A stretch of 43,667 bases of DNA, from NCBI GenBank assembly GCA_019247335.1, contig JAFAPB010000075.1:1-43667 (forward strand), in the 5' to 3' direction. Position numbers and translations under genes: made by a program. The DNA comes from Candidatus Kaiserbacteria bacterium (lineage in GTDB: Bacteria > Patescibacteriota > Minisyncoccia > Phycocordibacterales > UBA2100). Shown piece by piece: positions 4,589-35,635 of this stretch; within the stretch, counting starts at the first letter, position 1, and every line of letters starts with the position of its first letter. The notes beneath the pieces were generated by a model that saw only the letters and a program-made list of their open reading frames with translations, did no database searches and was not told where the DNA came from.

Positions 4589-4648
4589 AAAGGGGCGAAA
4601 AATCTGGGGGAAAGCCGAAAAACGCGTCCGGTCGCACGCTATACTTGT

Positions 4649-9752: not shown

Positions 9753-9753
9753 T

Positions 9754-10332: not shown

Positions 10333-10372
10333 CAAACGCGGGCATCGCGCATCGCTTGATATACTGAAAGCG

Positions 10373-10870: not shown

Positions 10871-10871
10871 T

Positions 10872-11537
10872 ATGCCGGAAACCACAGCCAATCCGCGCGC
10901 CAATACCCGCTCGACGCAGGAGTTCGTTCCCGTCGCTGAAGTGCGCGACGGCATCATCGTGATGAAGGACACGAGCCTGCGCGCTGTCCTCCTTGCGTCC
11001 TCTCTGAACTTCGCGCTCAAGTCGGAGGACGAGCAGACCGCGTTCATCGTGCAGTTCCAGAACTTTCTCAACTCGCTCGATTTTTCCGTGCAGATCTTCG
11101 TGCAGTCGCGCATGCTCGACATCCGTCCGTACGTCGCGACGCTCGAGGCGGCGTATAAAGAGCAGCTCGACGATCTCATGCGCGTGCAGATCCGGGAATA
11201 CATCGAATTCATCCGTAGCTTCACCGAGGCGGCGAACATCATGACGAAAAACTTTTTCGTCGTCGTGCCGTACACCCCGCCCGCGCTCACCAAAACCGGC
11301 GGCGCGCTCTCGCTCCTGTCGCTCGGCAAAGGCAGTGGCAGCGCGGATGAAGCGAACAAGACCTTTGAAGAACAGGTGACGCAGCTCGAGCAGCGCATCG
11401 CGATCGTGCAGCAAGGTCTCGTGCGCACCGGCGTGCGCACCGTGCAGCTCGGCACGGAAGAGGCGATCGAGCTTCTCTATAAGATGTTCAATCCGGGGGA
11501 AGAGGGGAAACCCATGCCCTTAAACGCACAACAATAG
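10872..11537 (+). CDS. T4SS-associated protein resembling the N-terminal domain of VirB4/TrsE-type ATPases
   Basis: 221 aa. The motif pattern VPVAEVRDGIIVMKDTSLRAVLLASSLNFALKSEDEQ..F..FLNSL...QI is typical of VirB4 N-termini from memory. No Walker motifs. 1-nt spacers on both sides. Confidence 0.4.
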   Translation: MPETTANPRANTRSTQEFVPVAEVRDGIIVMKDTSLRAVLLASSLNFALKSEDEQTAFIVQFQNFLNSLDFSVQIFVQSRMLDIRPYVATLEAAYKEQLDDLMRVQIREYIEFIRSFTEAANIMTKNFFVVVPYTPPALTKTGGALSLLSLGKGSGSADEANKTFEEQVTQLEQRIAIVQQGLVRTGVRTVQLGTEEAIELLYKMFNPGEEGKPMPLNAQQ

Positions 11538-11538
11538 T

Positions 11539-13476: not shown

Positions 13477-14516
13477 GACGTATCGCTTTGATCGCGCCGC
13501 TCGCGATACTCTTCTTCGCGGCGCCCGCTTTCGCACAACTCTCGCTCCCCGGCGGTGGGAACTCGCTCACGATCGGGATCGACCCTGTCGCACCGCGCCC
13601 CGGCGATCGAGTCGCGCTCTCACTTTCCACGTCTCTGTACGATCTGGATGCAAGCACGATCACCTGGCAGGTCAATGGCACGACGATCGCATCCGGTGTG
13701 GGCGTAAAAAATGCGTCATTTAGGGCCGGCGCCCTCGGATCCGCTGACGATATCAGCGTCGAGCTGGTCGACGGCGATGCGGTCGCCTCCGCCGAAACGC
13801 GTCTCACGCCCGCATCCGTCGATCTCTTGTGGGAATCCGATTCGTACGTGCCGCCGTTCTATCGCGGCCGCGCCTTGCCCACACCCGGTACGAGCATCCG
13901 ACTCTTCGCTATCCCATATCTCACAAAAACCGGCCGCACGTACGCCGCAGATCAGCTCATCTATACCTGGAAGGTGAACGGTGCGGTCGTCTCCTCGCTC
14001 TCCGGTCGCGGCAAAGCGAGCGCTCGCATTCCCGCGCCCGATCTTTTTGATCAAAAAACAGTGACGGTCGATGTCGCCTCACCCGATAAGAGCGTGGCGG
14101 CGAGCGCGAGCGTCACGATCTCGACCGGCGACCCTCTTGTGCGGCTCTATGAAGATCATCCGCTCTTCGGCGTAGAGTATTTCCGTGCGTTGCCGCCGAA
14201 TTTTTTCCTGAATGAGAGCGAAATGACCTTCATCGCGATACCGTATTTCGCAAAAGCTCAGCGGGGAAACAGCGCAAATCTTACGCACGAATGGCGCGTG
14301 AACGGCACGCCCGTCGCCGCTGCCGGCGACCGTACCGATGAGATCACCTTGAGCGCGGGAAACACCGGCGGGCTCGCGCACCTCGAGCTCTCGGTCGGCG
14401 ACCGCACGAACATCCTTTCGCAGGCCGCCGGTACCTGGGACATCACCTTCACGAAATCCGGCGGCGCGCCCGGCGCGACGTCGGGCGGCGCTTCGAGCCC
14501 GTTCGGCGACCATTGA
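13473..14516 (+). CDS. Secreted protein with three W-x-VNG beta-rich repeats
   Basis: 347 aa with signal peptide MRRIALIAPLAILFFAAPAFAQ and repeats ITWQVNGT / YTWKVNGA / HEWRVNGT. 4-nt overlap with virB4. Confidence 0.65.
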   Translation: MRRIALIAPLAILFFAAPAFAQLSLPGGGNSLTIGIDPVAPRPGDRVALSLSTSLYDLDASTITWQVNGTTIASGVGVKNASFRAGALGSADDISVELVDGDAVASAETRLTPASVDLLWESDSYVPPFYRGRALPTPGTSIRLFAIPYLTKTGRTYAADQLIYTWKVNGAVVSSLSGRGKASARIPAPDLFDQKTVTVDVASPDKSVAASASVTISTGDPLVRLYEDHPLFGVEYFRALPPNFFLNESEMTFIAIPYFAKAQRGNSANLTHEWRVNGTPVAAAGDRTDEITLSAGNTGGLAHLELSVGDRTNILSQAAGTWDITFTKSGGAPGATSGGASSPFGDH

Positions 14517-14517
14517 T

Positions 14518-15732
14518 ATGAATAATTTCTCGAGCGCAATTAAATTCTTCCTGGCGGCTGCGATCGTCATTATTCTCGGCGCGCTCCTCGGCTGGTACAC
14601 CTTCATTCATCGGCAGATCGCCGCGACGGATGCGGAGAGCAATGCGCGCGGCACTACTATTCCGACGTTCGGCGGGCAGACCGGCAGCATCAATGCGAAC
14701 ATAAGCGGCACCGCGGACACGGGAGAAGCGCCGCCCGGCAAAGCAGCGCCGCGCCTCTGGCATGTGACCAAAAACCCTGTCGCGGGCGACGGATTTGCAT
14801 CCGCGACCTCGACGATCTATTTCGCAGAACTTTCGAGCGGGAACGTGCTGATCGGCGATCCCTCCACGAGCGCCGTCGTGCGGCTCTCGAATACCCTGAT
14901 GCCCAAATCGTACGAAGCGCGCTTCGCGCCCGACGGATCCGTGATCCTGCGCTCGGTGGGCGAGAGCGGCGCCGTGCAGACCTACGCTGCACGGCTCGCC
15001 ACGTCGACCGAATCGGTCGATTCGACATCGACGCCGATGATGTTGAAGGGTTTGTATCTGCCGCAAGATATCCTCGAGATCACGACGGTCCCTGCTCTCA
15101 AGCTTTTGTATTTGATATCCGATAATGTGGGCGGGGCATCGCTGATCCAGTCCGATTGGTCGGGCGCGACGCAGAAGAAGCTCTTCTCATCACCGCTGCT
15201 TGAATGGCAGCTGCAGGTCTCTCCCGAGAACACCATCGTCCTCACGCAAAAGGCGGCCGACAATCTGCCCGGCTCCGCATATGCGCTCTCGGGTTCGACG
15301 CTCCGTCCGCTTGTCGAGAACGTGCCGGGACTCATCCTCCGCATCGGCAAAGGAGGCGCCATGCTCTACAGCTCGTCGAACGGCGCGCCTGATCTATACG
15401 CACAAGCGTCCGCGAGCGCGGCGCCGGTGCATCTGCCGATCCGCACCTCGGCCGATAAGTGCGTCTTTGCCGCCTCCGGGCTCACCGCGTACTGCGCCGT
15501 GCCGACGGCGAATCCGGGCGGTTACCTTTCGGCGCGCTTTCAGGGGACAGTGCATACGTCGGATTCCTGGTATCGCATCGATATGTCCGCCGGGACCGCG
15601 GAGAAATTCTTTACGCCTGACCCCTCGATCGCGCTCGACGTTGAGAATCCGCAGATCGATGCGAACGGGCTCTATCTCGCATTTCAAAACGGGGCGGATC
15701 GATCGCTCTGGATGCTCCGTATCATGCAATAG
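14518..15732 (+). CDS. Membrane-anchored extracytoplasmic protein, unknown function
   Basis: 404 aa with an N-terminal TM (FFLAAAIVIILGALLGWYTFI), then a beta-rich domain. Confidence 0.65.
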   Translation: MNNFSSAIKFFLAAAIVIILGALLGWYTFIHRQIAATDAESNARGTTIPTFGGQTGSINANISGTADTGEAPPGKAAPRLWHVTKNPVAGDGFASATSTIYFAELSSGNVLIGDPSTSAVVRLSNTLMPKSYEARFAPDGSVILRSVGESGAVQTYAARLATSTESVDSTSTPMMLKGLYLPQDILEITTVPALKLLYLISDNVGGASLIQSDWSGATQKKLFSSPLLEWQLQVSPENTIVLTQKAADNLPGSAYALSGSTLRPLVENVPGLILRIGKGGAMLYSSSNGAPDLYAQASASAAPVHLPIRTSADKCVFAASGLTAYCAVPTANPGGYLSARFQGTVHTSDSWYRIDMSAGTAEKFFTPDPSIALDVENPQIDANGLYLAFQNGADRSLWMLRIMQ

Positions 15733-15733
15733 T

Positions 15734-16300
15734 ATGTCTATGCGCGTACGAACACCGGTCGTTTCTCTCTGCCTTCTTGTTGTCATGTTGTTTCTCTTTG
15801 CCGGCGTCGCTCATGCCTCCGGCGCGGGTACCGGATGCACCAATCAATTCTGTCCGCTCGCGAATGTGAGCAATTCGCGACTCCAGGATATTTATTCCGG
15901 CACCGACCTCGCGAACTTCATCAGCAAGCTCTTCACCTTCGCGATATCGATCGGCGCGATCCTCGCGGTCCTGCGTCTCGGCTGGGCAGGGTACCTCTAC
16001 ATGACAACTGATAGCTGGGGATCAAAAGGGAAGGCGAAAGAGGTGATTGGCGACGTCGTCCTCGGCCTTCTCCTCCTCCTAAGCATCTGGATCATCCTCA
16101 AGCAGATCAATCCTGACATCTTGAAGCTCAACATTTTGAACCAAATTCAAAAAGTCGACGTGAGCAAGCAGGTCCCTGCCAATACCTCCGGCGCAGGCAC
16201 GGGGACAGGCGCCGGAACGGGCAGCGCAACGGGAACCGGCGGCGCGACAGGGACAGCGATGCCGTGCACTGATGCGCTCGGCAATGTGATTCCGTGCTAA
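15734..16300 (+). CDS. T4SS pilin-like protein (TrbC/VirB2-type topology)
   Basis: 188 aa from the ATG at 15734, in frame with the longer track ORF. Signal peptide, two hydrophobic helices (FISKLFTFAISIGAILAVL; VVLGLLLLLSIWIIL) and a C-terminal GAGTGTGAGTGSATGTGGATGT tract. Confidence 0.55.
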   Translation: MSMRVRTPVVSLCLLVVMLFLFAGVAHASGAGTGCTNQFCPLANVSNSRLQDIYSGTDLANFISKLFTFAISIGAILAVLRLGWAGYLYMTTDSWGSKGKAKEVIGDVVLGLLLLLSIWIILKQINPDILKLNILNQIQKVDVSKQVPANTSGAGTGTGAGTGSATGTGGATGTAMPCTDALGNVIPC

Positions 16301-16303
16301 CGG

Positions 16304-16768
16304 CTATTGCGCCGAGTATTTGATGACGACGCGGCGGCCGCGGCCTTCGCCTTGAGACTCCGTTTTAATATTCGGCTGATCCTGCAATGTCGTGTGGACG
16401 ATGAGTCGCTCGTACGCTGACATCGGCGTGAGCTCGACGTCGTATTGGAATGACCGCGCTCGCTCGGCCATCATGAGCGCTTTATTCTGGATATCCTTGA
16501 TGCGTTTCACCTGGTAGTCGTTCACGTCCACGAGAAAGCGCGGCTCCTCCTCGCCCTCTGCGGCGGGATGCTTCTTTTCGTAGATCTTCTTCACGAGCAT
16601 GTCGAGCGCGTAGATCGTATCGCCCCGTCCGCCGATCAGGATCGGCGCGGCCTCGGTCTGTATTGAAAAAATATGCTGGCCTGCCATTTCACTGTGGGAG
16701 ACGTCGGAGTAGGGGACGCCGAGGTTGTCGAGCAACTCCTTGACGATGGTCGTAACGGCAGCTTCCAT
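16304..16768 (-). CDS. jag: KH/R3H RNA-binding protein Jag/KhpB (short form)
   Basis: 154 aa with KH-like LIGGRGDTIYALD and R3H-like MSAYERLIVHTTL, in the conserved position downstream of yidC. Confidence 0.75.
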   Translation of the reverse strand: MEAAVTTIVKELLDNLGVPYSDVSHSEMAGQHIFSIQTEAAPILIGGRGDTIYALDMLVKKIYEKKHPAAEGEEEPRFLVDVNDYQVKRIKDIQNKALMMAERARSFQYDVELTPMSAYERLIVHTTLQDQPNIKTESQGEGRGRRVVIKYSAQ

Positions 16769-16811
16769 CCACCTTATGTACCATAGAATGAAGCACCGAC
16801 CAAACGAAGTG

Positions 16812-17549
16812 TTATTTTTCCGGATTGAAGCGCCTGCCGGCGAGGTATTCCTGGCCGATCATGAATAAGTTGCTCGTCGCCCAGTAGAGCGGTGCCGCCG
16901 CCGCGACCGTGTAGCCGATAAAGCCGACGATAAGAGGAAGCACGTACCGCGCCTGGAGATCAAAGCTCTTCGCCATTTCCGACGAGAACGACTGCTCCAC
17001 CGCTTCAATGGGCGTCTGCGACCCGCGCGGACCCATCGAGAGACGCGTATACGTCAGCTGGGCGAGCATCGCGATGAGCGCGAGCACGACCGAATGTCCC
17101 GCCATATTGATGAGGCCCAAAAATTCCATGTTGACGACCGGCGGCGCCGCGACGAATGTGTAGAGGTATTCCGTATGGACGACGGGGAAGCCGCCGCGCG
17201 CAAAGACCCAATAGAGCCCGAGGAGAATCGGTAACTGCACTAAAAGAAGCAGAAATCCGGCGAACGGGTGGATGTCGCGTTCGCGGTAGAGCGCGAGGAT
17301 CGCCTTGCTTTGCTCCTCGGGCTTATCCTTATATTTCTTCTTGATCTCTTCGATCTCGGGCGCGACGCGCTTCATGTCCATCTGCGCCTTGACCGCTCGC
17401 TTCGAGAGCGGCCAGAGAATGATGCGTACGATGAAGGTGACGATGATGACCGCGATACCGATATCGTGCGTCGGGATATGATCGACAAAAAAGACGAGCG
17501 CGTTGTAGATCGGCAGGTAAATGATCGCGTGGAAAGCGTGACCGATCAT
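16812..17549 (-). CDS. yidC: Membrane protein insertase YidC (short type)
   Basis: 245 aa, multi-TM, in rnpA-yidC-jag synteny. Confidence 0.85.
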   Translation of the reverse strand: MIGHAFHAIIYLPIYNALVFFVDHIPTHDIGIAVIIVTFIVRIILWPLSKRAVKAQMDMKRVAPEIEEIKKKYKDKPEEQSKAILALYRERDIHPFAGFLLLLVQLPILLGLYWVFARGGFPVVHTEYLYTFVAAPPVVNMEFLGLINMAGHSVVLALIAMLAQLTYTRLSMGPRGSQTPIEAVEQSFSSEMAKSFDLQARYVLPLIVGFIGYTVAAAAPLYWATSNLFMIGQEYLAGRRFNPEK

Positions 17550-17583
17550 AGATGCATCAGTATCGCCTACCTCCGGGATGCCA

Positions 17584-17901
17584 TCAAGCGGCTGCCCGCT
17601 TCATGAGCTGGGCGATCTCCGCGCGTATTTCGTCATTCGACGCTTTCGTCGATCCCGCTTTCGCGTAGATAACGTACGCGCCGGCGGGAAGCGCCGGAAG
17701 AAGCGGCAGGAGCGCCGCACGGACGCGGCGCTTCAGCTTCGTACGGTCGACCGCATGACGCGCGACCTTTTTAGATATGACGCAGGCGAGTGCGGCACGC
17801 GAAAACCGCGAGACCCCTATGGAAAAAAGCTGACCGTGCGTCTTTTGAGCGGGGGAGAGCGTTTTCAGCTCGCCGCTTGAGAGTCGATATCGTGCAGGCA
17901 T
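17584..17901 (-). CDS. rnpA: RNase P protein component
   Basis: 105 aa, basic, immediately downstream of rpmH. Confidence 0.8.
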   Translation of the reverse strand: MPARYRLSSGELKTLSPAQKTHGQLFSIGVSRFSRAALACVISKKVARHAVDRTKLKRRVRAALLPLLPALPAGAYVIYAKAGSTKASNDEIRAEIAQLMKRAAA

Positions 17902-17910
17902 GAACCTCCT

Positions 17911-18045
17911 TTACGCGGAGAGTCGCGCGCGGCCCTTTCGGCGGCGCCTTGTGAGCATTTTGCGGCCGCCGCGCGTCTTTGTTCGCACGATAAAACCGTG
18001 CGTCTTCGCGCGCTTCTTCTTTTTGGGCTGATACGTTCGTCGCAT
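17911..18045 (-). CDS. rpmH: 50S ribosomal protein L34
   Basis: 44 aa: [44 protein letters not shown]. The track ORF is trimmed to the internal ATG. TGGTATAGT lies 7 nt upstream of that ATG. Confidence 0.9.
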
Positions 18046-18212
18046 AAGCGGCACTATACCAGTGTTTCGGTATTTTGAAAGGCCGAAATGAGCGAGAAAA
18101 CGTATCCCCACGTTCTCCACAGCTTATAAACAGCGCGGGGAAATGAAGTTTGCGCTTCCCACAACGCCCGATGCGCGTATAATGACCAAGCTTTGATGCG
18201 CATGATGATTCT
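18046..18212. promoter_or_regulatory. rpmH-dnaA divergent promoter region with DnaA-box-like sites
   Basis: TTCTCCACA (18113-18121) matches 8/9 of TTATCCACA. TATAAT sits at 18178-18183 upstream of dnaA. Confidence 0.4.
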
Positions 18213-19562
18213 ATGATGACTAATCGGGAACTATGGCAAAATGCGCTCGTACAGATCGAACTCGGCACCTCTCAAGCCTCGTTCCGGACCTGGTTCAAGA
18301 ATACTGATGTCTCCAATCGCGACCAGGGCACCGTCCAGGTCGCCGTTCCGTCGAAGATCGTGAAGGAGTGGCTCCTCGAAAAGCATCACAAGCTGATCCT
18401 GAAAGCGCTCCGCTCGCTCGATCCTTCTATCCGAACGGTCGAATACGTCGTGCACCGCACGCAGCCGCGCGATGAGCGCCGTCCGCGCGTGCGCGAGAAT
18501 CAGGAGAACGCTTCGCTCGATCTCCAGGCGCTCTATATAGACAAGCGCGACAATCTGAATCCCCGATACACCTTCGAGACGTTCGTCGTCGGACCTTTCA
18601 ACGAGCTCGCGCATGCCGCCGCGAAGGCGATCATCGAGCGTCCCGGGCTTGTCTACAACCCGCTTTTCATCTACGGACAGACCGGGCACGGCAAGACGCA
18701 CTTGATCCAAGCGATCGGCAACTATTTCAAGAAATCACACGCCAATAAGAAGGTGCTCTACGTGACGAGCGAGCGCTTCGCGATCGATTACATCAATGCG
18801 GTGCGCGGAGGGCACGCGAACACGTTCAAGGATCAGTACCGACAGTACGACGTGCTCATCATGGACGACGTCCAGTTCATCGCGAACACGGAAAAGACCC
18901 AGGAAGAGCTCTTTCATCTCTTCAACGCCCTCCGAGACAACAACAAGCAGATCATTTTCTCGTCCGACAAGCACCCGATGCTCCTCCCCGGCTTTGAAGA
19001 CCGCCTCAAGGGGCGCTTCTCGGCCGGCATGATCGCGGAAATTCCCGAGCCGGATGTCGAATCGCGCCTCGCCATCATCCGCGCGAAGCTCGAGAGCCAT
19101 GGATTTTCGATCCCCGACGATATCACGCTCTACATCGCGGAGAATGTGCGCGGCAACATCCGTGAGCTCGAGGGAGTGTTGAACATGATCGTCTGCAAAT
19201 CGCAGTTGAAGGGAAAGACGATCTCGCTCGCCGACGTGCGTGCGCTCATCAAGCACAACGTAAAGCCCAACAAGGGTGTTTCGATCGACGAGGTCGTGCG
19301 CCGCATCGCGCAGTACTACGAGGTGCCGGAGAAGTCCATTTACGAAAAGACCCGCAAGAAGGAGGTCGTGAAGCCGCGGCAGATCATCATGTATGTCTTG
19401 CGTGAAGAATTCTCCGTCTCATATCCGTCGATCGGCGAAAAGCTCGGCGGACGCGATCATACGACGGTCATCCACTCGTGCGAGAAGATCAAAGAAGAGA
19501 TCAAGGGGAACAATTCGCTCGAGCAGGAACTCGATCATATTCGCGCACTCATACACGCATAA
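18213..19562 (+). CDS. dnaA: Chromosomal replication initiator DnaA
   Basis: 449 aa with Walker A GQTGHGKTHL, DDVQF and a C-terminal DNA-binding helix-turn-helix region. Confidence 0.95.
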   Translation: MMTNRELWQNALVQIELGTSQASFRTWFKNTDVSNRDQGTVQVAVPSKIVKEWLLEKHHKLILKALRSLDPSIRTVEYVVHRTQPRDERRPRVRENQENASLDLQALYIDKRDNLNPRYTFETFVVGPFNELAHAAAKAIIERPGLVYNPLFIYGQTGHGKTHLIQAIGNYFKKSHANKKVLYVTSERFAIDYINAVRGGHANTFKDQYRQYDVLIMDDVQFIANTEKTQEELFHLFNALRDNNKQIIFSSDKHPMLLPGFEDRLKGRFSAGMIAEIPEPDVESRLAIIRAKLESHGFSIPDDITLYIAENVRGNIRELEGVLNMIVCKSQLKGKTISLADVRALIKHNVKPNKGVSIDEVVRRIAQYYEVPEKSIYEKTRKKEVVKPRQIIMYVLREEFSVSYPSIGEKLGGRDHTTVIHSCEKIKEEIKGNNSLEQELDHIRALIHA

Positions 19563-19777
19563 GTATGTGTATAAGCAGTGCACAATCGGTAGAGATCGTG
19601 CGCGCGAAAACGGGGACAACTCCTCTTCATCATTTCTCCACAATTCAGACACCGGCTAACCGTCAGCTTTTCAACAGTGAGCGACATGGTAAAAAGTCAG
19701 TATATAAGCCGCAAAATCCATCTATACACGGTATCCACACCACTAGTAGTAGTAATAAGTTCTTTAATTAAAAATCT
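19563..19777. promoter_or_regulatory. Candidate oriC (dnaA-dnaN spacer)
   Basis: Three 8/9 DnaA boxes: TGTGTATAA (19566-19574, reverse orientation), TTCTCCACA (19634-19642) and GTATCCACA (19731-19739). An AT-rich tract at 19743-19777 could be the unwinding element. Confidence 0.6.
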
Positions 19778-20875
19778 ATGAAGATCGAGACAACAAAGGA
19801 AAATCTGCTTCGCCCTGTTTTGATCGCGGAGCGGGTCACCGGGAAAAAAGAATCCCTCCCGGTGCTTTCGTGTGTTGTTCTCGAAGCGGATGATGGGCTT
19901 CTTGTGCGAGCGACCAATCTTGAGGCAGGTATCGAAATAGGGATCGCCTGCGATGTCGCGCAAAAAGGTACCGTCGCGGTCCCCGCGTCGATACTCTCGC
20001 AAACACTTCGTTCGATCTCCGCCGACAAGATCAAGCTCACGTCCGAAGACGGGAATCTCCTCATCGAATCAAAGGGAACAAAGACGTTGATCAAATCGGT
20101 CCCACACGAAGAGTTTCCGCGACTCACCGCATCAAGTGACGGTAACGGTATTAAAATCGCGCGTGAGCGAATTTTACGCGCCATACAGGCAGTCTCATAC
20201 GCGGCGTCACCCTCGATGATCCGCCCCGATCTCGGCAGCATCTTTCTTTCCGCAAAAAACGACACGCTCATTTCCGTCGCGACCGATTCATTTCGCCTCG
20301 CCGAAAAAACATTGACCGGTACGGGATCGAAGATTCAGGGCGAGCTTCTGGTGCCCCTCAAGCACGCGCTCGAACTCGCTCACATCCTTGAGCATGTCGA
20401 TGACGAAATGGTGGATCTGCGCATCGACGACTCGCAGCTGATAGCCCGAGTCGGCGCCGCACGCTTTATCTCACGCGTCGTCGATGCTCAATTTCCGAAT
20501 TACAAGGAAATCATTCCGAAATCAGCGACGACCGAGGCGATCGTCCTCAAGAGCGATCTCGCCGAAATGCTTAGGAAGGCACGCGTTTTTTCCGGGAACG
20601 ACATGCATGTCGGACTCCATGTGTATCCGAAGAAGAAGGTATGCACCGCAACCGCGCGCTCGAATGACGTGGGCGAAATGTCCGACTCGATCGATGCGGC
20701 TCTCTCGGGCGAGGATATCGACATTAATTTCCACATCGGCTATCTCGCCGACTGCCTGTCGTCCATCGAATCTGATTCGGTCGTCCTGTCTTTCTCCGGC
20801 GCAGGAAAACCACTTGTCATCCGCGGCGTTGCGGACAAATCATTCATGTACCTCGTGATGCCACTCAATCGCTAG
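19778..20875 (+). CDS. dnaN: DNA polymerase III beta sliding clamp
   Basis: 365 aa, follows dnaA, typical three-domain length. Confidence 0.95.
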   Translation: MKIETTKENLLRPVLIAERVTGKKESLPVLSCVVLEADDGLLVRATNLEAGIEIGIACDVAQKGTVAVPASILSQTLRSISADKIKLTSEDGNLLIESKGTKTLIKSVPHEEFPRLTASSDGNGIKIARERILRAIQAVSYAASPSMIRPDLGSIFLSAKNDTLISVATDSFRLAEKTLTGTGSKIQGELLVPLKHALELAHILEHVDDEMVDLRIDDSQLIARVGAARFISRVVDAQFPNYKEIIPKSATTEAIVLKSDLAEMLRKARVFSGNDMHVGLHVYPKKKVCTATARSNDVGEMSDSIDAALSGEDIDINFHIGYLADCLSSIESDSVVLSFSGAGKPLVIRGVADKSFMYLVMPLNR

Positions 20876-24485: not shown

Positions 24486-26918
24486 CTAATTCCCGTCGCT
24501 GCTGATGTGGAAACTGACACTTTGCGCGATATACGCGCCGGTCGCGCCGTCTTGCGCGCGCAAGTAGTAATTGCCGCTGGGGAGCGATGCTATGGGGCTG
24601 ATCGTAAGCGTTCCGGAGCCGCTGATCGCTGGGCTCGTGTAGCCAGAGAACTGCGCGCCGGTCGTGTTATTGATGAACACTACGCGCGTGTTTGCCGGCA
24701 TAAGGGTGTACGGCGCTGTCACCGTTTCGCCGCCGGGCGCGGCCGGTGAGACGCTGAGATCCGTGAAGTGCCCTCCGATGACCGTCACCGTAATTGATGC
24801 TGAAGTCGTGTGCCCTACGGCATCGGTCACAACATAGGTGACATGGTAGGTGTGCCCGCCGTCTGAAGATGTCGTATTCCCCGACCACGATCCGCTCAAT
24901 TGGTTTGCTATCCACGGATGTTGTGTCGCGTCCTCGTCGACTGTGGAGTACGAGGTTGCGCTGACAGCGTTGGTGGAAGACCATGCCACGCTTATAGGGT
25001 CGCCCACGTTCATCGTGAGATTTGTTTGGCCGTTGACGGTGAAAGTCGCGGTCGGCGCCGTATAGGTGAGGTGTATCTGCTGCTTGATGAGGTCACGATC
25101 GAGGCCGTCAGATCCGCCCCTATTGAGCGAGAAGTACAGATAAGGGTCTTGCCCTGATGTCGAGAAATTCGCGTCGGTGCTTGTTGGGTCGAGCAGGGTA
25201 GTGTAGTTCAGCGCGTCCGGAGTCGTCGTGAACGGCTTTGTCAGGAAGACGACCGGCGTACTCCAGTGTATGAGATCCTGCGAGAAGCTCAAGGCGGTAT
25301 TGCTCGCGGAGTCGAGGATTGCGACGTATGCGCCGAGATAAGTATTGTAGGTAACGCTCGTGAAGGGATCCGACGCGTAGACGGACACGTTCGGGTCGAA
25401 GAGGTATCCGCAGTCAGTTACCGAAAGCGTGCCCGACCAGCCGCTGCCGGTCCAGACCTGCCAAGAGGAACCTGCATCGAGATTCTGCGTACGCATGATG
25501 CATTCGCCACGGTTGCCGGAATTCGGCGGCGGGCTGATGTGGTAGTAAAAGGCGTAATAATATCCGTCACCTCCATGGATTATTTTGCCCGGGGAATCGC
25601 CGTAGACTGTTTGGAAGCCTTGCGCGCACGGACTCGACGAACTCCAGTTCGCCGGCACCCGCACTTTGTAGTCCGAGGGGAACGTGAAGTGAGCGCCACC
25701 GTCGGTCGATTTGGCGATATTCGTCGAGATGACGAATGCGTCCGCACCGCAGTGGTTATCGCCGACCGTCGTCGGGTACCACTCGTTGTGCGTGAGCGCG
25801 TACACATTTGTGCCATCAGTCGTATACGTGCTTACGACCCAGTTGTAATACTGCTGGTCCGCGAAATTCGTGTCCTTCGCGGATACCAATACTGAATTGC
25901 AGTCGTGTGCGATGAAACCGTTCAGCGTTGAGGAGTTGGTTCCGCGATAATTCGCGACGCCGTCGCCCGCGATAAGTGCGACGGTGCTGTTCGCAGTGCG
26001 GAACGCTGTCGCAGGCGAATCCGGAATATCGAACCCATTGATGCTTCCGTTCAAGAGACACTTATCGGTCGAATTGTTGTATACGGTATCCGCGTAGCCC
26101 GTACTTTGCACCTGCACGTTACCTGATGTGGCGCCCGTCGTGATATTCATGGGCATTGCTTGCGGCGTACGATTAATTTGCTTGTCCGGTCCGCCGCTCC
26201 CCGGATACGGATAGACGACGTACGCGTAAATCTTGTGGCTGTGGCCATTCTGCAAACTGCCCGGGAGCGTGTAGGTGAATCCGTGATTGTCGTTGCCACT
26301 CCCGATATTGAGCGCCGCGCCGAGTCCGGGCCGGTTCACATTCGCGGTCGCCGTGCCGAGATACGTGCCCGAGCCTTGCGGACCGTCCGCATAGAAGTTT
26401 ACCTGCATCGTTTGCGAGCCGTCCGCGAGATTCGCTGCCCAGCCCGACATGACGTTTTGGCTGATCCAGTCAGCCGAGCCAAGCAGATTGGGCGTTGCGA
26501 TCGCAGAAGCTGTCGTCGGCGAAGCGATCTGGTCCACTCCGCCGGCGCTTGGGTCTATGGTGTACGTATATATCGAATGCGCCTGCCCATCGTGCAGCCA
26601 AGAAGGCAGTGTGAATTGATAGCCGTGGTTGTCATTCCCATTACCGATACCGGGTAGAGCCGCGCCGAGGCCCGGCCTGTTCACATTCGCAGTCACGGCA
26701 CCGAGAAAGGTCCCTGTCCCGTAGGGGCCATTGGCATACACGTGCACCTGCAGCGTCTGCGACGGGCTCGTATAGTCCACGGCCCATCCATAGACCACAT
26801 TATTGATGACGCCGTCCGTCCGGCCTTGTACGGAATCAGCCGATGCGACGAGCGGGAATAAAAGCGCCGCGAAGGCGATGAGCGCGGCCGATAAAGAGAC
26901 CCGTGAAAGATAGTTCAT
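24486..26918 (-). CDS. Large secreted protein: N-terminal tandem repeat, BNR/Asp-box-containing central domain, C-terminal Ig-like domains
   Basis: 810 aa with a signal peptide. Two ~110-aa repeats (..GWAVDY..VHVYANGPYGTGTFLGAVTANVNRPGLGAAL..GNDNHGY / ..GWAANL..VNFYADGPQGSGTYLGTATANVNRPGLGAAL..GNDNHGF) and a STDGGAHF Asp-box. Confidence 0.8.
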   Translation of the reverse strand: MNYLSRVSLSAALIAFAALLFPLVASADSVQGRTDGVINNVVYGWAVDYTSPSQTLQVHVYANGPYGTGTFLGAVTANVNRPGLGAALPGIGNGNDNHGYQFTLPSWLHDGQAHSIYTYTIDPSAGGVDQIASPTTASAIATPNLLGSADWISQNVMSGWAANLADGSQTMQVNFYADGPQGSGTYLGTATANVNRPGLGAALNIGSGNDNHGFTYTLPGSLQNGHSHKIYAYVVYPYPGSGGPDKQINRTPQAMPMNITTGATSGNVQVQSTGYADTVYNNSTDKCLLNGSINGFDIPDSPATAFRTANSTVALIAGDGVANYRGTNSSTLNGFIAHDCNSVLVSAKDTNFADQQYYNWVVSTYTTDGTNVYALTHNEWYPTTVGDNHCGADAFVISTNIAKSTDGGAHFTFPSDYKVRVPANWSSSSPCAQGFQTVYGDSPGKIIHGGDGYYYAFYYHISPPPNSGNRGECIMRTQNLDAGSSWQVWTGSGWSGTLSVTDCGYLFDPNVSVYASDPFTSVTYNTYLGAYVAILDSASNTALSFSQDLIHWSTPVVFLTKPFTTTPDALNYTTLLDPTSTDANFSTSGQDPYLYFSLNRGGSDGLDRDLIKQQIHLTYTAPTATFTVNGQTNLTMNVGDPISVAWSSTNAVSATSYSTVDEDATQHPWIANQLSGSWSGNTTSSDGGHTYHVTYVVTDAVGHTTSASITVTVIGGHFTDLSVSPAAPGGETVTAPYTLMPANTRVVFINNTTGAQFSGYTSPAISGSGTLTISPIASLPSGNYYLRAQDGATGAYIAQSVSFHISSDGN

Positions 26919-26957: not shown

Positions 26958-27485
26958 TCAGGCTGCGTTTGTATAGACCTCCTCGACATCGTCGTGCCCG
27001 TCGATCTCTTCGAGAATTTCCATGAGCTTGGCATCGTCTTCCTCGGAGAGCGGTACCGTGGTCGAGGGCTCGTAGCCCTCGGCCGTTTTGGCGAATGCCC
27101 ACGCGGCAGAGCCGGGGGAGGCGAGTTCGAGTCCGTTCTCCGAGAGGAGATGTTTGATCTCCTGTGCAGTGCGATTTCTATTGTCGGTAAGCGCGTCGAT
27201 GAGGATCGCGGCGCCGCCAGGACCATACGTCTCATAGGTCACGCTCTCAAGCGCGGTGTCATTGGAGACGCCCTTCGCGACCGCGCGCTCGATCGTGTCT
27301 TTCGGCATGTTCGACTTTTTGGCGCGTTCGATCGCGGCACGCAGTCCCGGCGCGTTCACATCGCCCCCCGCTTTCTTGCTCTCGACTGAAATGCGTTTGC
27401 CGAGCTTGCCCCACAAATTGCTCTTTGCGGCATCTGCGGCACCCTTCTGCCGCTTGATCTGCGCCCATTTATTGTGTCCGGCCAT
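26958..27485 (-). CDS. yebC: YebC/PmpR-family transcriptional/translational regulator (short form)
   Basis: 175 aa from the internal ATG: MAGHNKWAQIKRQKG..., with TDNRNRT. TATACT lies 9 nt upstream of the ATG. Confidence 0.85.
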   Translation of the reverse strand: MAGHNKWAQIKRQKGAADAAKSNLWGKLGKRISVESKKAGGDVNAPGLRAAIERAKKSNMPKDTIERAVAKGVSNDTALESVTYETYGPGGAAILIDALTDNRNRTAQEIKHLLSENGLELASPGSAAWAFAKTAEGYEPSTTVPLSEEDDAKLMEILEEIDGHDDVEEVYTNAA

Positions 27486-27561
27486 AGCGCGTGCAGTATA
27501 AACCAAACGGTTATTCGAATGAACTCCTATCACGAGCGCCGGCGTATGCGAAAATAGTGTC

Positions 27562-27981
27562 ATGAAGATCCGCTACGTTGCCGCCGGGTTTGCCGTTCTT
27601 TTTTTCCTGGTGTGGATCACGACGCACGTGCCCGCGTTCAACGACGCGCGCGGGTACAACTTCGGCCTCTTCAAGATCGATCCCATCGACGACGTGGTGC
27701 ACCTCTTGACCGCGCTCATCGGATTTCTCGCCGCATGGCACGGCGCACGCTCTTCGCGCATCTTTCTCGTCGTCTTCGGCGCACTCTACGCGCTCGACGC
27801 CCTGACTGGCATGGTCTCGCAGCTCGGACTGCTCGATCTCTCGCTCATCCACAATACGCTCCTCGGTGAAACCATCCTCAATCCAAATTTCGGCATCGTG
27901 AATTGGCTCGTGAATATGCCGCATATCGTGATCTCCGCCGCGATGATCTACTCCGGCGTTTGGGGTTGGCGCCGCGGGTGA
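27562..27981 (+). CDS. Small polytopic membrane protein (DUF4383-like by recollection)
   Basis: 139 aa with four hydrophobic helices. Confidence 0.55.
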   Translation: MKIRYVAAGFAVLFFLVWITTHVPAFNDARGYNFGLFKIDPIDDVVHLLTALIGFLAAWHGARSSRIFLVVFGALYALDALTGMVSQLGLLDLSLIHNTLLGETILNPNFGIVNWLVNMPHIVISAAMIYSGVWGWRRG

Positions 27982-31736: not shown

Positions 31737-31850
31737 GTATTTATTGTATCGCCTATCCACAGTTCTATACACGACTAATCCCCGCGATATCCACCGTTTT
31801 AGACGATTTTTGTAAAACGGCTGTCAAGTGAAGATGAGTACTATTTGAAG

Positions 31851-32083
31851 TCCGACCACTTTACCGTGCGTCGGCGGGATACGGGACGGGCGAAAGCCCC
31901 GACAGGATCCCAATTCCCTGAGTCTACGGAGCCATGCGCCCGGGACATTGCGGGAATCGTCGGTCGGAGCATTGGATTTGAATGCACCAGCGGCGGGAGG
32001 AGATGACATCAAGCACCGTTGCGCCTTCGAAGACTCATAACGATCGAAAGCAGAAGCCGCCTCTTGGGGCGGCTTCTGTCTTT
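31851..32083 (+). ncRNA. Structured-RNA candidate, family member 1 (unknown family)
   Basis: Closing helix TCCGACC (31851-57) / GGTCGGA (31962-68). Box CTTTACCGTGCGTCGG (31859-74). GAAA-tetraloop hairpin at 31888-99. Conserved 27-nt block at 31949-75. 11-bp hairpin at 32051-78. No credible ORF. Confidence 0.45.
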
Positions 32084-32092
32084 ACCGTGCGT
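32080..32092 (+). repeat. Orphan copy of the 13-nt RNA box CTTTACCGTGCGT
   Basis: Identical 13-mers at 31859-31871, 32080-32092 and 32251-32263. This copy sits directly after the first hairpin and marks the left edge of the AT-rich block. Confidence 0.7.
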
Positions 32093-32132
32093 TACTTCGC
32101 ATTGTATAGACGTATTTTTCGCAAAAGCGAGT

Positions 32133-32168
32133 TATGCACATATTTGTGCACAGCTCTATGCACATGAT
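32133..32168. promoter_or_regulatory. Three 12-nt-phased TGCACA sites (operator/iteron-like)
   Basis: TATGCACATATT | TGTGCACAGCTC | TATGCACATGAT. The centre unit contains the perfect palindrome TGTGCACA. Confidence 0.35.
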
Positions 32169-32243
32169 TTCCAAACGTTATCCCCGAAAAAATCGTTTTC
32201 GCGCAAAATGCGCGCGCAAATCGCACTTTTATACTCTTCCTAT

Positions 32244-32486
32244 CGATGCGCTTTACCGTGCGTCGGTCGGTCCAAGGGTCCCGCAGCAATGCGACTTCCT
32301 AAGGATCAGTTCCCAGGATCTAATGCAAGGCGAAAGCCTTGCGGACGGTGCGGGAATAGGCGGCGAGAGCATCGGGTTCGTGTGGGCGAAGCGGGGAGAT
32401 CATATCAAGACGACTCGCGCTCACGAAACGAAACATAATCGCCGTAAACACAAAAGCCTCCCTCGCGGAGGCTTTTGTGTTGTGGG
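32244..32486 (+). ncRNA. Structured-RNA candidate, family member 2 (unknown family)
   Basis: TATACT at 32230-35. Closing helix CGATGC (32244-49) / GCATCG (32369-74). The same box at 32251-66. GCAA-tetraloop hairpin at 32282-93. Second GAAA hairpin at 32275-92 of the next line block (GCAAGGC-GAAA-GCCTTGC). 27-nt block at 32349-75. 14-bp hairpin at 32448-80 followed by TTTTGTGTTGT. Confidence 0.45.
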
Positions 32487-32535: not shown

Positions 32536-33564
32536 ATGGCTGTTAATAACCTAGCCATGCTCGAAGAATATAAGAGTTTGCAGCTTCTATATGCTGACTT
32601 CGCTGAACGCCTGAAATCAATAGCAAAAGATATTCTTGACCTGAACGAGATAAATATCGTGTCGATTGAAGCTCGTGCAAAATCCACAGACAGTCTAAAA
32701 AGCAAAATCGAAGCACGAAGTGAAACGTTACAAGAACTAGTTGATATTAAGGATCTCGCGGGCGTTAGAGTTATTGCGTTGACCCGAGCTGATGCCGAAA
32801 AGATTGAAGAACAGCTCAGTGCTTGCTTTGATGTTGAGGAGAGTACGGACGAGGGTGCGCATGAGCTCGACAAAATAGGCTACAGATCAAAGCACCTCGT
32901 AGTCTCGTTACCAAATGAACGGTGTGCGCTACCCGAGTATAAAAAATTTAAAGGACTTAAAGCTGAACTACAAATCAGAACGGTACTTGAGCATGCATGG
33001 GCACAAATCGGCCATGATCAGGTTTACAAGCAGAGCTCAGTATTGCCGGAAGAAATACGTCGCGATTTTAATCTACTCGCTGGTCTATTAGAAATAGCCG
33101 ATAAACAATTCAGCCGACTAACCGGTGAAATATCGCGACAAGAAAAAAATGTTGCTCAAAAAACACGGCAGGGCGACCTTAATATCCCGATCGACTCCAT
33201 ATCATTACGCGGTTTCCTAAGCGAAAAATTCAAGGGACTTTCAAATCTTGATCCCCGATTTGGCCCGCAAGATAACATGGCAGAGGAAATCATCTCGGAA
33301 CTCAAGGCCATGGGCATAAACACTCTCCAGGATTTGAATTCCGTAATCCCAGAGGACTACAAGGAGAAAGCGCAGGCGTTAAAAGAATATAATAATTTTT
33401 GTGGAATAACTCGAGATATCATGATCATTCACGACGCAAAAAAATATTTTGAAGGTCCGTGGAAAAATAAATGGGCCTGGGGTAGAGATGAGGGACACAT
33501 ACTGTCCTTCTATGGTATTGATCGCAATGAATTAGCTAAGAAATATCAGGATCTTGAGTCTTAA
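32536..33564 (+). CDS. Stand-alone RelA/SpoT-homologue nucleotide pyrophosphokinase (small alarmone synthetase-like; toxSAS/CapRel-like candidate)
   Basis: 342 aa. Ordered synthetase motifs ARAKSTDSLKSK, DLAGVRV, GYRSKH and ELQIRTVLEHAWAQIGHDQVYK. No HD hydrolase domain. ~150-aa C-terminal extension. Markedly lower GC than the flanks (38% in the first 60 nt, counted by hand). Confidence 0.85.
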   Translation: MAVNNLAMLEEYKSLQLLYADFAERLKSIAKDILDLNEINIVSIEARAKSTDSLKSKIEARSETLQELVDIKDLAGVRVIALTRADAEKIEEQLSACFDVEESTDEGAHELDKIGYRSKHLVVSLPNERCALPEYKKFKGLKAELQIRTVLEHAWAQIGHDQVYKQSSVLPEEIRRDFNLLAGLLEIADKQFSRLTGEISRQEKNVAQKTRQGDLNIPIDSISLRGFLSEKFKGLSNLDPRFGPQDNMAEEIISELKAMGINTLQDLNSVIPEDYKEKAQALKEYNNFCGITRDIMIIHDAKKYFEGPWKNKWAWGRDEGHILSFYGIDRNELAKKYQDLES

Positions 33565-33582: not shown

Positions 33583-33660
33583 CTAAAGAAGCTTAGGCTT
33601 ATCTTCAGGTACTGAAATGCCGATGTGTTCGTAGTCTTTTTGGTGACAATACGGCCGCAT
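33583..33660 (-). pseudogene. Frameshifted remnant of a ruvB 3' end
   Basis: 33619-33656 aligns to ruvB 34667-34705 with 34 of 39 columns identical and one 1-nt indel. The minus-strand reading retains ..YEHIG...LL-stop, as in the real RuvB C-terminus (..KKGYEHIGAEPPKGQTQLL). Confidence 0.6.
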
Positions 33661-33701: not shown

Positions 33702-34586
33702 CTACGCGACCGCTTCGATCGCGGCTGCGACTTCGGCCTCAATGTCGCAGGTGAGCAGTGCGGCTGCGAGCATCGAGAGTTCATCGCGGCCAGCGGCGCC
33801 GATGGATTGCATGATCGACTCGATCTTCGCGGCGCGGAAGCGTTCGACCCACGTGCGCTCCATCAGGATGTCCGTCGCGTCGAAGTACGCGCCATACAGA
33901 TCCTTCCAGACCTGCGCGTGGTCGTCTTCGATGTCGCCGAGCCGCTTCACGAGCGCACGCGCGAGCCATACGGCTTTGCGATACAGCGCCCACTCGGCGT
34001 CGGCCTCGATCTGCTTGAAGTACTCGGCGATCAGATCAGGATCGGCGAACGTCGGATCGAAGTTCAGATACTCGCGCATCACCTCGCGGGCGAAGCACTC
34101 GGTGAAACCTTCGCTCAAGAAGAAGTTCGATCCGGCGATCCAGGGTTCTTCCGGCTGGAACCATTTCGGGAAGTCCATGCCGATGTACTTGTAGAAGCCG
34201 CAGATCTCCATGGTGAACTTCACTTCGATGCCGTGCACCCGCGTGGTGCGTGGCTCAAAGGTCCGCGTCTTTGCGATCTTGTGCACCCGCTCGTGGATCA
34301 CGAGATTGAGCACGATGAGATCATGCGGCGCGCCCTGTTCGACGCGTTCGTCGATGCCGGGAGTCAGCAGCCGGTACCCGTCTGGTTGGGCATAGCCCGA
34401 GATCAGCCGCCCCGTGCGTTTGTCGATCACTCGCTGTGTATCGAGATAGGCGCGCTCGCTCGGAAAACGTCCGAAGTCGAGCTCGTAGCGCCGCTCGACG
34501 ACGTGGTACGCACGGAGGAGCTTGTCCTCGTCGATGCGCTCAAGAACTGCGCGCAGCCTGTCGAGACTACTTAGAGGTCCAGTCAT
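33702..34586 (-). CDS. Hypothetical protein with an HExxH (HERVH) motif
   Basis: 294 aa from the ATG at 34586 (GGGGG 6 nt upstream); an alternative TTG is at 34622. Balanced amino-acid composition, unlike the antisense 33666-34574 ORF. Motif LVIHERVHKI. Confidence 0.6.
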   Translation of the reverse strand: MTGPLSSLDRLRAVLERIDEDKLLRAYHVVERRYELDFGRFPSERAYLDTQRVIDKRTGRLISGYAQPDGYRLLTPGIDERVEQGAPHDLIVLNLVIHERVHKIAKTRTFEPRTTRVHGIEVKFTMEICGFYKYIGMDFPKWFQPEEPWIAGSNFFLSEGFTECFAREVMREYLNFDPTFADPDLIAEYFKQIEADAEWALYRKAVWLARALVKRLGDIEDDHAQVWKDLYGAYFDATDILMERTWVERFRAAKIESIMQSIGAAGRDELSMLAAALLTCDIEAEVAAAIEAVA

Positions 34587-34630: not shown

Positions 34631-35635
34631 TTAAAGCAATTGCGTCTGACCTTTCGGCGGCTCGGCGCCGATGTGCTCGTAGCCCTTTTTGGTGACGATT
34701 CGGCCCCGCGGCGTGCGTTCGAGGAGGCCCACCTGCATAAGGTACGGCTCGTGGACTTCTTCGATAGTCGCTTCTTCTTCGGAGAGCGATGCGGCGATCG
34801 TCTTTAAACCGACGGGGCCGCCATTAAATTTCTCGACGAGGATCGTGAGAATGTCGCGGTCGATCTGATTGAGCCCGATCTCATCGATCTCGAGAAGCGC
34901 GAGCGCTTTTTTCACGGTCTTGATGTCGAGCTTCTCGCTGTTGACCTCCGCAAAGTCGCGCGCGCGTTTCAATAGATAATTCGCGGTGCGCGGCGTCGCG
35001 CGCGAGCGGCGCGAAATTTCCATGAGCGAGTCCTTGTCAATATCGATGCCGAGAATTTTTGCGGAGCGGCGGAGTATCTCCGCGATCTCTTCAACGCTGT
35101 AGTACTGCAATCGGAACGTGCCGCCCGAAAATCGCGAGCGAAGCGGCGCAGAGAGGAGCGAGATACGCGTCGTCGCGGCGATGAGCGTGAAGGGCGGGAG
35201 TTCGAGCTGCACGGTGCGCGCGCTCGGCCCTTTGCCGATCACGATATCAAGTACGCCTGCTTCCATCGCGGGGTAGAGGACCTCTTCGATCGTGCGATTC
35301 AAGCGATGGATCTCGTCGATAAAGAGCACGTCACCCGGCGTGAGGTTGGTGAGGATGGAGGCGAGGTCGCCCACGCGCTCGACGGCTGGCCCTGAGGTGG
35401 TGCGGAGATTGGCGCCAAGCTCTTTGGCGATGAGGTGCGAGAGCGTCGTTTTGCCCAATCCTGGAGGGCCGTAGAGCAGCACGTGCTCGGGCTGGTGATT
35501 CCTGCCTTTGGCTGCGGTGAGGAGAATACGAAGGTTCTCTTTAATAGAAGGTTGGCCGATGTAGTCGGCCCACTCGGTCGGGCGAAGGGCTTGATCGAGG
35601 CTGCGGGGGCTTTTTTCTATCGAGGGTTCGGTCAT
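34631..35635 (-). CDS. ruvB: Holliday junction branch-migration ATPase RuvB
   Basis: 334 aa from the internal ATG (MTEPSIEKSPRSLDQALRPTEWADYIGQ). Walker A GPPGLGKTTL, Walker B IDEIHRL. Confidence 0.95.
   Translation of the reverse strand: MTEPSIEKSPRSLDQALRPTEWADYIGQPSIKENLRILLTAAKGRNHQPEHVLLYGPPGLGKTTLSHLIAKELGANLRTTSGPAVERVGDLASILTNLTPGDVLFIDEIHRLNRTIEEVLYPAMEAGVLDIVIGKGPSARTVQLELPPFTLIAATTRISLLSAPLRSRFSGGTFRLQYYSVEEIAEILRRSAKILGIDIDKDSLMEISRRSRATPRTANYLLKRARDFAEVNSEKLDIKTVKKALALLEIDEIGLNQIDRDILTILVEKFNGGPVGLKTIAASLSEEEATIEEVHEPYLMQVGLLERTPRGRIVTKKGYEHIGAEPPKGQTQLL

Follow-up and report, generated by a model that had tools for sequence, protein, structure and literature searches.

What do two long, similarly built non-coding units do side by side in front of a single RelA/SpoT-type gene? 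The question is raised by a contig of Candidatus Kaiserbacteria bacterium (JAFAPB010000075.1 of assembly GCA_019247335.1), analysed here as a window of 43,667 nucleotides (nt), i.e. the whole stretch of DNA under consideration, in which a preliminary description had recognised a tandem pair of structured-RNA candidates and proposed two functional readings, namely tandem riboswitch-like leaders of the RelA/SpoT-type gene or a locus resembling type III toxin-antitoxin systems. As presented below, the structured-RNA part of this interpretation stands, whereas both functional ties to the RelA/SpoT gene fall. The best explanation overall, to which a probability of about 0.72 is given, is that the units are a pair of paralogous copies of a free-standing gene for a lineage-restricted non-coding RNA and not a leader of the RelA/SpoT gene; reduced to its core, that is a free-standing accessory structured RNA gene duplicated at this locus, the reading is very probable.

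The two units lie on the plus strand at about 31850-32083 and 32242-32486, 392 nt apart, and the limits first drawn for them agree with the mapping made here. All the sequence blocks listed at the time are common to both units, and sequence reading, pairwise alignment and repeat search return the first, second, fourth, fifth and seventh of them, as well as an extra GAAA hairpin, at the positions originally reported. The 16-mer CTTTACCGTGCGTCGG is identical at 31859-74 and 32251-66, a block of 27 nt (TGCGGGAAT...GAGCA) matches at 21 of its 27 positions by manual count and is covered by a repeat family (D1) of 36 nt at 75%, the pair GGAGATGACATCAAG / GGAGATCATATCAAG (GGAGAT..ATCAAG) is found as described, and the terminal GC-rich hairpins reappear in the repeat search, one with arms of 11 base pairs (bp) that are 100% complementary (I4) and the other at 85% (I1). 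Sequence reading also finds the third and sixth blocks, the latter being CATAA, in both units. Besides, the hairpins GGGC-GAAA-GCCC and CGCA-GCAA-TGCG occupy the same position of the alignment and correspond to helix P2a of the fold described below, and GCAAGGC-GAAA-GCCTTGC at 32325-42 corresponds to helix P3a of unit 2. The similarity between the units is far above chance: a profile of 23 family members matches unit 2 at E=3.8e-53 and unit 1 at E=6e-38 and finds no further copy of the RNA in the window.

The search for homologues recovered about 26 distinct sequences, all from metagenomes and from genomes of Kaiserbacteria type within the Candidate Phyla Radiation (CPR), for an RNA of about 215-235 nt. 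A two-block pattern scan of species-representative genomes gave true homologues in five, all Kaiserbacteria or Patescibacteria metagenome-assembled genomes, together with four chance matches (three within coding sequence); a looser pattern gave 27 metagenome loci, genuine except for four (three distinct sequences), the metagenomes being of groundwater type; and three extra variants (L045, L046 and L049 in the numbering of loci used here) were reached via the loci of YebC homologues. Rfam 15 returned 0 matches at gathering thresholds in the window and, at E up to 10, only terminator-like sub-threshold noise on the region and on locus L023; on 20 homologous loci its sole match was one unrelated tRNA, with nothing at the RNA itself. 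The RNA family is thus new as far as Rfam 15 is concerned. A scan with ARAGORN for transfer-messenger RNA (tmRNA) and tRNA found none, and a housekeeping RNA (RNase P RNA, tmRNA, 6S RNA or the RNA of the signal recognition particle) is unlikely, since no Rfam match and no tmRNA are found and since the RNA is missing from some syntenic blocks and duplicated here. Viral contigs, phage records and plasmids were also searched for the RNA and gave no match, for which reason a phage or plasmid origin is rejected as well.

The structured-RNA fold, established with RNAalifold on 7 and then 23 sequences together with single-sequence folds, is well supported. The consensus consists of a 5' hairpin (P1), three arms (P2 to P4) and a terminator hairpin, with GNRA tetraloops at the tips of two of the arms. 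P1 is a 10-bp hairpin with the loop (C)UUUACC, both the loop and the 3' strand being invariant; P2 bears the inner hairpin P2a with a GAAA or GCAA cap; P3 (GUUCCC/GGGAAY) bears the inner hairpin P3a, whose tetraloop is of the GNRA type (GCAA, GAAA) in most members; and P4 is long, with a base CGGCYA/UAGCCG, large conserved internal loops (GAGCA... and ...CCGAAAU) and an invariant apex GGAGAU-CRU-AUC, large insertions being confined to its interior (L027, L035). On 23 sequences, the 83-pair model leaves 88.4% of cells paired vs. 35-41% when the partners are slid by 1-3 columns, 48 of the 83 pairs show changes on both sides, and the covariation score reaches 0.313 vs. 0.06-0.09, a value attained by 0 of 500 shuffles; the model, being derived from family members, is somewhat favoured in this test of its own, where the margin is large. 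Single-sequence folds reproduce the same arms from each sequence alone, and the many G-U pairs fix the plus strand. A closing helix previously suspected in each unit (TCCGACC/GGTCGGA and CGATGC/GCATCG) has to be abandoned, the two units pairing in different registers with 0 compensatory pairs across the 23 sequences, a result equalled by shuffles; its supposed 5' strand forms the local hairpin P1 instead, in which 98% of cells pair. Pairing of the P1 loop with the CCGUAAAC linker in a pseudoknot is likewise rejected, as the linker varies while the loop is constant.

Regarding coding potential, the only recurrent open reading frame (ORF), which starts at an ATG inside P1 (MRFTVRR...), is basic, ranges from 13 to 83 amino acids (aa) and is absent in unit 1. 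Since its length varies and substitutions follow the compensation of stems, the RNA is non-coding; coding potential is rejected, the apical GGAGAU resembling a ribosome-binding site with an ATG following only in unit 1, and so is a type I toxin-antitoxin system, as the recurrent ORF is not the conserved small, usually hydrophobic peptide expected of one. The initial view of non-coding, structured, plus-strand units with terminal hairpins, outside the catalogued families, is in this respect borne out, by the Rfam comparison as well as by the homologues and the covariation.

By sequence comparison, the two units are paralogous copies, unit 1 appearing as a divergent paralogue and unit 2 as orthologue-like. 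Unit 1 (31850..32083, plus strand; P1 31850-75, P2 31877-911, P2a with its GAAA loop 31888-900, P3 31913-57, P4 31960-32047, terminator 32049-83) is the most divergent member of the family, with 55-58% identity to all members including unit 2, 66% of the model pairs formed and a modest fold z-score of -2.2 relative to shuffled sequence; in its P1, the 5' strand is a different one, yet its pairing with the invariant 3' strand is kept. Unit 2 (32242..32486, plus strand; P1 32242-67, P2 32269-307 with a GCAA loop on P2a, P3 32309-57, P3a with its GAAA loop 32325-43, P4 32360-445, terminator 32447-81 followed by a U-rich tail) shows about 71% identity to other genomes, 82% of the model pairs and a z-score of -6.0. 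A tandem second copy also occurs in a second genome (L004, identical to L030), where it is shortened: at L004:6399-6580, on the minus strand, it lacks the P4 extension including the invariant GGAGAU apex and keeps P1 to P3 and the base of P4, thus representing a natural deletion variant.

The genomic context of the RNA is that of a variable spacer in a conserved block. By tblastn with the proteins of the window, about 21 loci have a divergent yebC (encoding a 176-aa YebC) upstream of the RNA and about 20 have a convergent ruvB downstream of it, so that the RNA sits in the ruvB-yebC spacer on the strand opposite to both genes. In the longer loci, the syntenic block reads pilB, ruvB, variable spacer, yebC, ruvC, penicillin-binding protein, dnaN, dnaA, rpmH, rnpA, yidC and jag, the window having the same block, and the RNA locus is always 6-14 kb from dnaA. 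The cargo of the spacer differs from locus to locus: L013 and L049 have a Fic protein, L011 has a 388-aa ORF whose N-terminal part is hydrophobic, L045 and L046 have Usg and DoxX genes (both genes being also present in L047, a locus lacking the RNA), and sequence reading adds a small YggT-like ORF after the RNA; in the window, the cargo comprises a flavin adenine dinucleotide (FAD) oxidase, a hydrolase, the RelA/SpoT gene and a 294-aa ORF. The RNA is missing from L044 and L051-53, where ruvB and yebC abut at distances of 51 and 10 nt, and from the same block in L047, the syntenic block being what was covered of these genomes. The YebC/TACO1 homologue of Kaiserbacteria (26958-27563 on the minus strand of the window), which is usually divergent from the RNA across an array of DnaA boxes, has 175-176 aa; YebC/TACO1 proteins are typically about 240 aa long.

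Each copy of the RNA would be transcribed from its own promoter and would end at its own hairpin terminator. A TAnnnT hexamer (TAGTAT, TATACT, TATAGT or TATAAT) stands 6-8 nt before P1 at every homologous locus and makes a plausible -10 box. In the window, the putative promoters carry the -10-like hexamers TACTAT at 31840..31845 for unit 1, with a predicted start at about 31851, and TATACT at 32230..32235 for unit 2, with a predicted start at about 32242, both on the plus strand. The product would act in trans, either as a folded RNA or as an RNA-protein particle.

These putative promoters stand in the company of DnaA boxes at a conserved position. With at most 1 mismatch, 22 of the 24 upstream flanks and 20 of the 21 downstream flanks contain such boxes, in a single orientation, against a background of 0.02 per 100 nt; upstream, three DnaA-box-like 9-mers in 12-nt phase (TTATCCACAgctCTATCCACTcgaAATCCAC) lie about 65-100 nt from the RNA. 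In the window itself, a DnaA-box-like array precedes unit 1 (31753..31795, plus strand), beginning with CTATCCACA at 31753 (1 mismatch) and continuing with weaker boxes in a phase of about 12 nt, and a cluster lies between the units (32132..32186, plus strand), with TTATGCACA at 32132, the inverted TGTGCACAG at 32145, CTATGCACA at 32156 and TTATCCCCG at 32178. In the window, dnaA too has boxes of this type on its flanks. The synthesis of the RNA would be tied to DnaA, i.e. to replication status. Arrays of this kind recall the DnaA-box clusters known outside oriC (those of Bacillus subtilis, or datA and DARS in Escherichia coli), which control promoters beside them or titrate DnaA and also consist of consensus TTATCCACA-type boxes, intergenic, near the origin and beside promoters; the difference is that the boxes predicted here bracket a structured RNA gene. 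The same region between the units also holds two minus-strand terminator-like hairpins (32133-32220), one of which arises from inverted DnaA-box-like repeats.

Part of P1 is repeated beyond the 3' end of the RNA. After the terminator, either directly or past an insertion, the loci carry a module that starts with TACCGTGCG(T) and continues with ATTGTA or ATAGTA 12-16 nt on and with CTTATCC(A/C)CA about 24 nt on. In the window, a third, 13-nt copy of the first block, CTTTACCGTGCGT (32080..32092, plus strand; repeat family D2), duplicates the P1 loop and 3' strand directly after terminator 1 and had been overlooked in the preliminary description; the module is retained only after unit 1, unit 2 being without it at the point where inserted DNA begins. 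In all 23 of the 23 family RNAs holding both the 5' and the 3' copy, the 9-mer TACCGTGCR is identical in the two, and in L046 both copies carry the same G-to-A change, reading TACCGTGCA. On the minus strand, 20 of 21 loci have a -10-like box TAC[A/T]AT (TACAAT or TACTAT) at a distance of 12-16 nt from the motif, the other having TACACT, with a predicted start about 7 nt downstream of it, usually on an A.

This minus-strand box could drive a convergent antisense RNA of 55-60 nt, whose first ~15 nt or so would contain the seed ACGCACGGUAA, followed by a bidirectional hairpin shared with the large RNA and by a U-rich stretch; an unpaired seed and a strong hairpin are predicted in most loci. The seed is complementary to UUACCGUGCGU in P1, with predicted duplexes of -19 to -24 kcal/mol vs. 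-11 to -17 for the P1 hairpin, and would pair with the P1 loop and 3' strand, thereby controlling the stability or the conformation of the large RNA. In the window, the predicted small RNA occupies 32038..32106 on the minus strand (-10 box TACAAT at 32106..32101, start at about 32094, seed UAACGCACGGUAAAG, shared hairpin 32078..32051, end at about 32038) and could address both units. A convergent antisense RNA pairing with P1 is considered slightly less probable than an even bet. Known antisense pairs such as RNA II/RNA I of ColE1, CopT/CopA of R1 and the type I toxin-antitoxin pair txpA/RatA, which overlaps at the 3' end, similarly rely on convergent or overlapping transcription, on a shared bidirectional terminator and on a short partner whose unpaired seed matches a hairpin loop, features that are predicted here, and the common variants UUUA and CUUA of the P1 loop fit the YUNR U-turn pattern. 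In contrast to these pairs, the partner predicted here is encoded at the 3' end and targets a 5' hairpin in trans, and the large RNA is without a conserved peptide and not beside a replication gene. Reading the downstream module as a plus-strand promoter instead (TTTACC-N17-TATAGT) is rejected, as the -35 and the first base of the -10 are unconserved and no conserved plus-strand product follows.

The P1 10-mer ACCGTGCGTC also occurs in antisense orientation in rnpA and rpmH (17833-17842 and 17995-18004 of the window), across the codons K-T-H-G, and rpmH carries ACGCACGG in the RNA-bearing L046 and L049 and not in the RNA-lacking L047/48 or L051/53, a small sample in which this may be coincidence. 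A pairing of P1 with the rpmH or rnpA mRNA (ACGCACGG, over the T-H-G codons, in the window and two RNA-bearing genomes) is rejected, the sample being small, the rnpA site unconserved and L046 without co-variation.

The same repeated motif, TTACCGTGCG, lends itself to another explanation, in which it is a site in DNA, whether an operator placed in the early transcribed region and again beyond the terminator, or a recombination site that would make the locus a cassette and duplication hotspot. The invariance of both copies and the change shared by them in L046 are what a common binding protein would predict, and the recombination version draws on a ~95-nt cassette lying between duplicated TTACCG in L021 and L022, on the highly variable downstream cargo, on tandem copies in two genomes and on the loss of the module after unit 2 exactly at the start of foreign DNA. 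Yet the rest of the intergenic DNA of the loci is free of the motif, which has no linked recombinase gene either, and a DNA site does not explain the minus-strand -10 box and hairpin with their strict placement; in addition, the 5' strand of P1 in unit 1 has changed in such a way as to keep pairing with the invariant 3' strand, which makes the 5' copy at least also an RNA element. A DNA site is on the whole an unlikely account of the motif. As for the cassette itself (about L021:1215-1310 and L022:1705-1800, L022 being identical to L026), it follows the RNA terminator immediately, contains two covarying hairpins and a conserved CCGAGCCGAGGAGTYGGAAA, and leaves a complete seed beside the new hairpin. 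Rfam returns nothing for it at gathering thresholds, and the window does not contain it; it may represent either a further small RNA or a miniature mobile element.

A relic or accessory origin, RNA-primed or RNA-regulated after the manner of ColE1-type plasmids, would bring DnaA boxes, RNA and antisense RNA together into a single replication-control module. The boxes on both sides in one orientation, a predicted sense/antisense pair that meets at a 5' hairpin loop, and an element that is accessory and patchy in a variable region would suit such a module, but a canonical dnaA-dnaN origin region with boxes of its own lies 12-14 kb away, neither a Rep gene nor a clear AT-rich unwinding element nor a change in GC skew is found at 32 kb, and the RNA has no plasmid or phage relative, which makes this explanation very improbable. 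In the window, the origin neighbourhood spans 16304-20875, with jag, yidC, rnpA and rpmH on the minus strand, dnaA and dnaN on the plus strand, and DnaA boxes at 18113, 19566, 19634 and 19731; judging from gene order and boxes, it is the probable oriC. The RNA locus was also considered as oriC and rejected: since the dnaA-dnaN region is the better candidate and the GC skew tracks gene strand only, with no signal at 32 kb, it is probably not the origin.

The neighbour that gave the locus its first interpretation is the RelA/SpoT-domain gene at 32536..33564 on the plus strand (Pfam RelA_SpoT 8e-17; PADLOC candidate PDC-S33 8e-18), whose product resembles the solved small alarmone synthetases YjbM and YwaC. 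The GC content of its region is 47-50% vs. about 59% in the surroundings. Directly after its stop codon lies a frameshifted remnant of the 3' end of ruvB (33619..33658, minus strand), about 85% identical by manual count to the intact end of ruvB at 34651-34690 and with a 1-nt deletion, which marks an old right edge of the insert; from this remnant it can be deduced that the gene once abutted ruvB and that a later event interposed the 294-aa ORF (33702-34586, minus strand), an ORF without family or PDB match that stands between the remnant and the intact ruvB. On these sequence features, the RelA/SpoT gene is neighbouring cargo in a low-GC insert that would have landed in the variable spacer beside the RNA, and it is unrelated to the RNA system.

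The first of the two functional readings is that of tandem riboswitch-like leaders that would sense a ligand such as (p)ppGpp, the guanosine tetra- and pentaphosphate alarmones, and control read-through into the RelA/SpoT gene. The units and the gene do share a strand, the terminator of unit 2 ends 55 nt before the start codon (and not 50 nt, as first counted), and a complex fold with GNRA loops has something of an aptamer. Nevertheless, the RNA loci L001-L036, searched by tblastn with the RelA/SpoT protein, gave no match outside the window, the gene tables of the later loci L045, L046 and L049/50 hold no RelA_SpoT domain, and, across genomes, what lies downstream of the RNA is convergent ruvB in most loci or unrelated cargo instead of the same or a related gene. 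Conversely, the closest RelA/SpoT homologues (45-48% identical, with upstream spacers of 11-191 nt) lie after gyrA, after rpsI or behind a 191-nt spacer, and no RNA homologue was found upstream of them. Besides, the terminator stem stands apart from P4 in the consensus as well as in each of the single-sequence folds, no conserved antiterminator pairing was seen in these folds, no search dedicated to it having been made, and no riboswitch, of the ykkC type or any other, matches even when E is allowed to reach 10. The two units have a -10 box each, and, by sequence reading, a candidate promoter TTAACT-N15-TAAAAT precedes the RelA/SpoT gene itself. Taken together, a leader function is highly improbable.

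Least credible of all is a type III toxin-antitoxin-like locus in which a repeated RNA antitoxin, a terminator and a toxic small alarmone synthetase would follow one another, for although the order of RNA repeats, terminator and gene is the expected one, the protein matches a PADLOC candidate defence family and some RelA/SpoT-type enzymes are toxins, such loci want short (about 30-40 nt), near-identical repeats where the window has two ~230-nt units that are 55% identical, a general repeat search (with no dedicated Tandem Repeats Finder run) found no short tandem repeats in them, the protein has a RelA_SpoT domain and not an endoribonuclease of the ToxN/AbiQ, CptN or TenpN type, and RNA and gene co-occur nowhere else, the homologues of the gene standing alone in housekeeping contexts (after gyrA or rpsI). 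With tandem riboswitches and type III loci the present locus shares serial RNA elements with terminators upstream of a gene on the same strand; it differs from them in having no conserved downstream gene, no apparent switching platform and repeats that are neither short nor near-identical. The locus is hence a cautionary case, where adjacency to a RelA/SpoT gene in one genome pointed to a leader or a toxin-antitoxin system and where comparative context reveals recent cargo in a variable spacer.

Several points weigh against the free-standing, probably DnaA-linked RNA gene favoured here. The RNA is patchy across syntenic blocks, which marks it as accessory and makes a housekeeping particle unlikely, and no clue to a binding partner or mode of action of the large RNA emerged. 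A simple scan for sigma-70 promoters and terminators flagged neither unit, and the strand, the ends, both promoters and the antisense RNA are all read from sequence. The DnaA boxes could serve neighbouring genes or the titration of DnaA rather than the promoter of the RNA. Regarding the antisense RNA, the coupling of the 5' and 3' motifs rests on one covarying genome, and a DNA-binding protein acting at both sites predicts the same; in addition, the hexamer assigned to the minus strand also yields a -10 box on the plus strand, albeit a weaker one (TATAGT, with CATTGT at several loci).

Some other features of the window deserve mention. Between yebC and ruvC, an 810-aa ORF (24486-26918, minus strand) has no sequence match in Pfam, NCBIfam, PADLOC or PDB, and in related genomes fetched via YebC homologues the two genes are adjacent or separated by small ORFs only. 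This ORF and the 294-aa one were considered as RNA-guided proteins and rejected, neither having a family or PDB match. Further away, a run of plus-strand ORFs at 3454-16300, mostly without Pfam match, includes a TraG-like P-loop ATPase (11539-13476), and related loci carry genes resembling type IV secretion system (T4SS) pilins beside jag; this origin-adjacent run is a possible type IV secretion or conjugation-like cluster.

Among known RNAs, the closest company is that of the orphan bacterial non-coding RNAs of complex fold that comparative genomics has defined, such as raiA-motif RNA, OLE and ROOL, which are likewise free-standing genes with their own promoter and terminator (predicted ones in the present case), several helices, GNRA tetraloops, strong covariation and a lineage-restricted distribution. 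The family described here differs from them in having no sequence or structure match in Rfam 15, in its smaller size (about 220 nt) and its restriction to CPR bacteria of the Kaiserbacteria type, as well as in the DnaA-box arrays that flank the gene and in an apparent convergent antisense partner, itself a prediction. Elsewhere, multi-arm RNAs with GNRA tetraloops have proved to be ribozymes, riboswitches or particle scaffolds. To our knowledge, few regulatory RNAs have been characterised in CPR/Patescibacteria, the genomes of which are tiny, and the DnaA-box bracket near the origin together with a probable antisense partner offer concrete, testable handles on this one. A bolder proposal, possible but doubtful on the sequence features at hand, is that the RNA, its antisense partner and the DnaA-box arrays may work together in CPR bacteria as a single RNA switch, placed near the origin and controlled by DnaA, in which the large RNA would be the effector, protein-binding or catalytic, its level or conformation would be set by the small RNA at P1 and both promoters would be gated by DnaA. 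If true, such a switch would link initiation status in organisms with very small genomes to some cellular process or to the control of replication itself.

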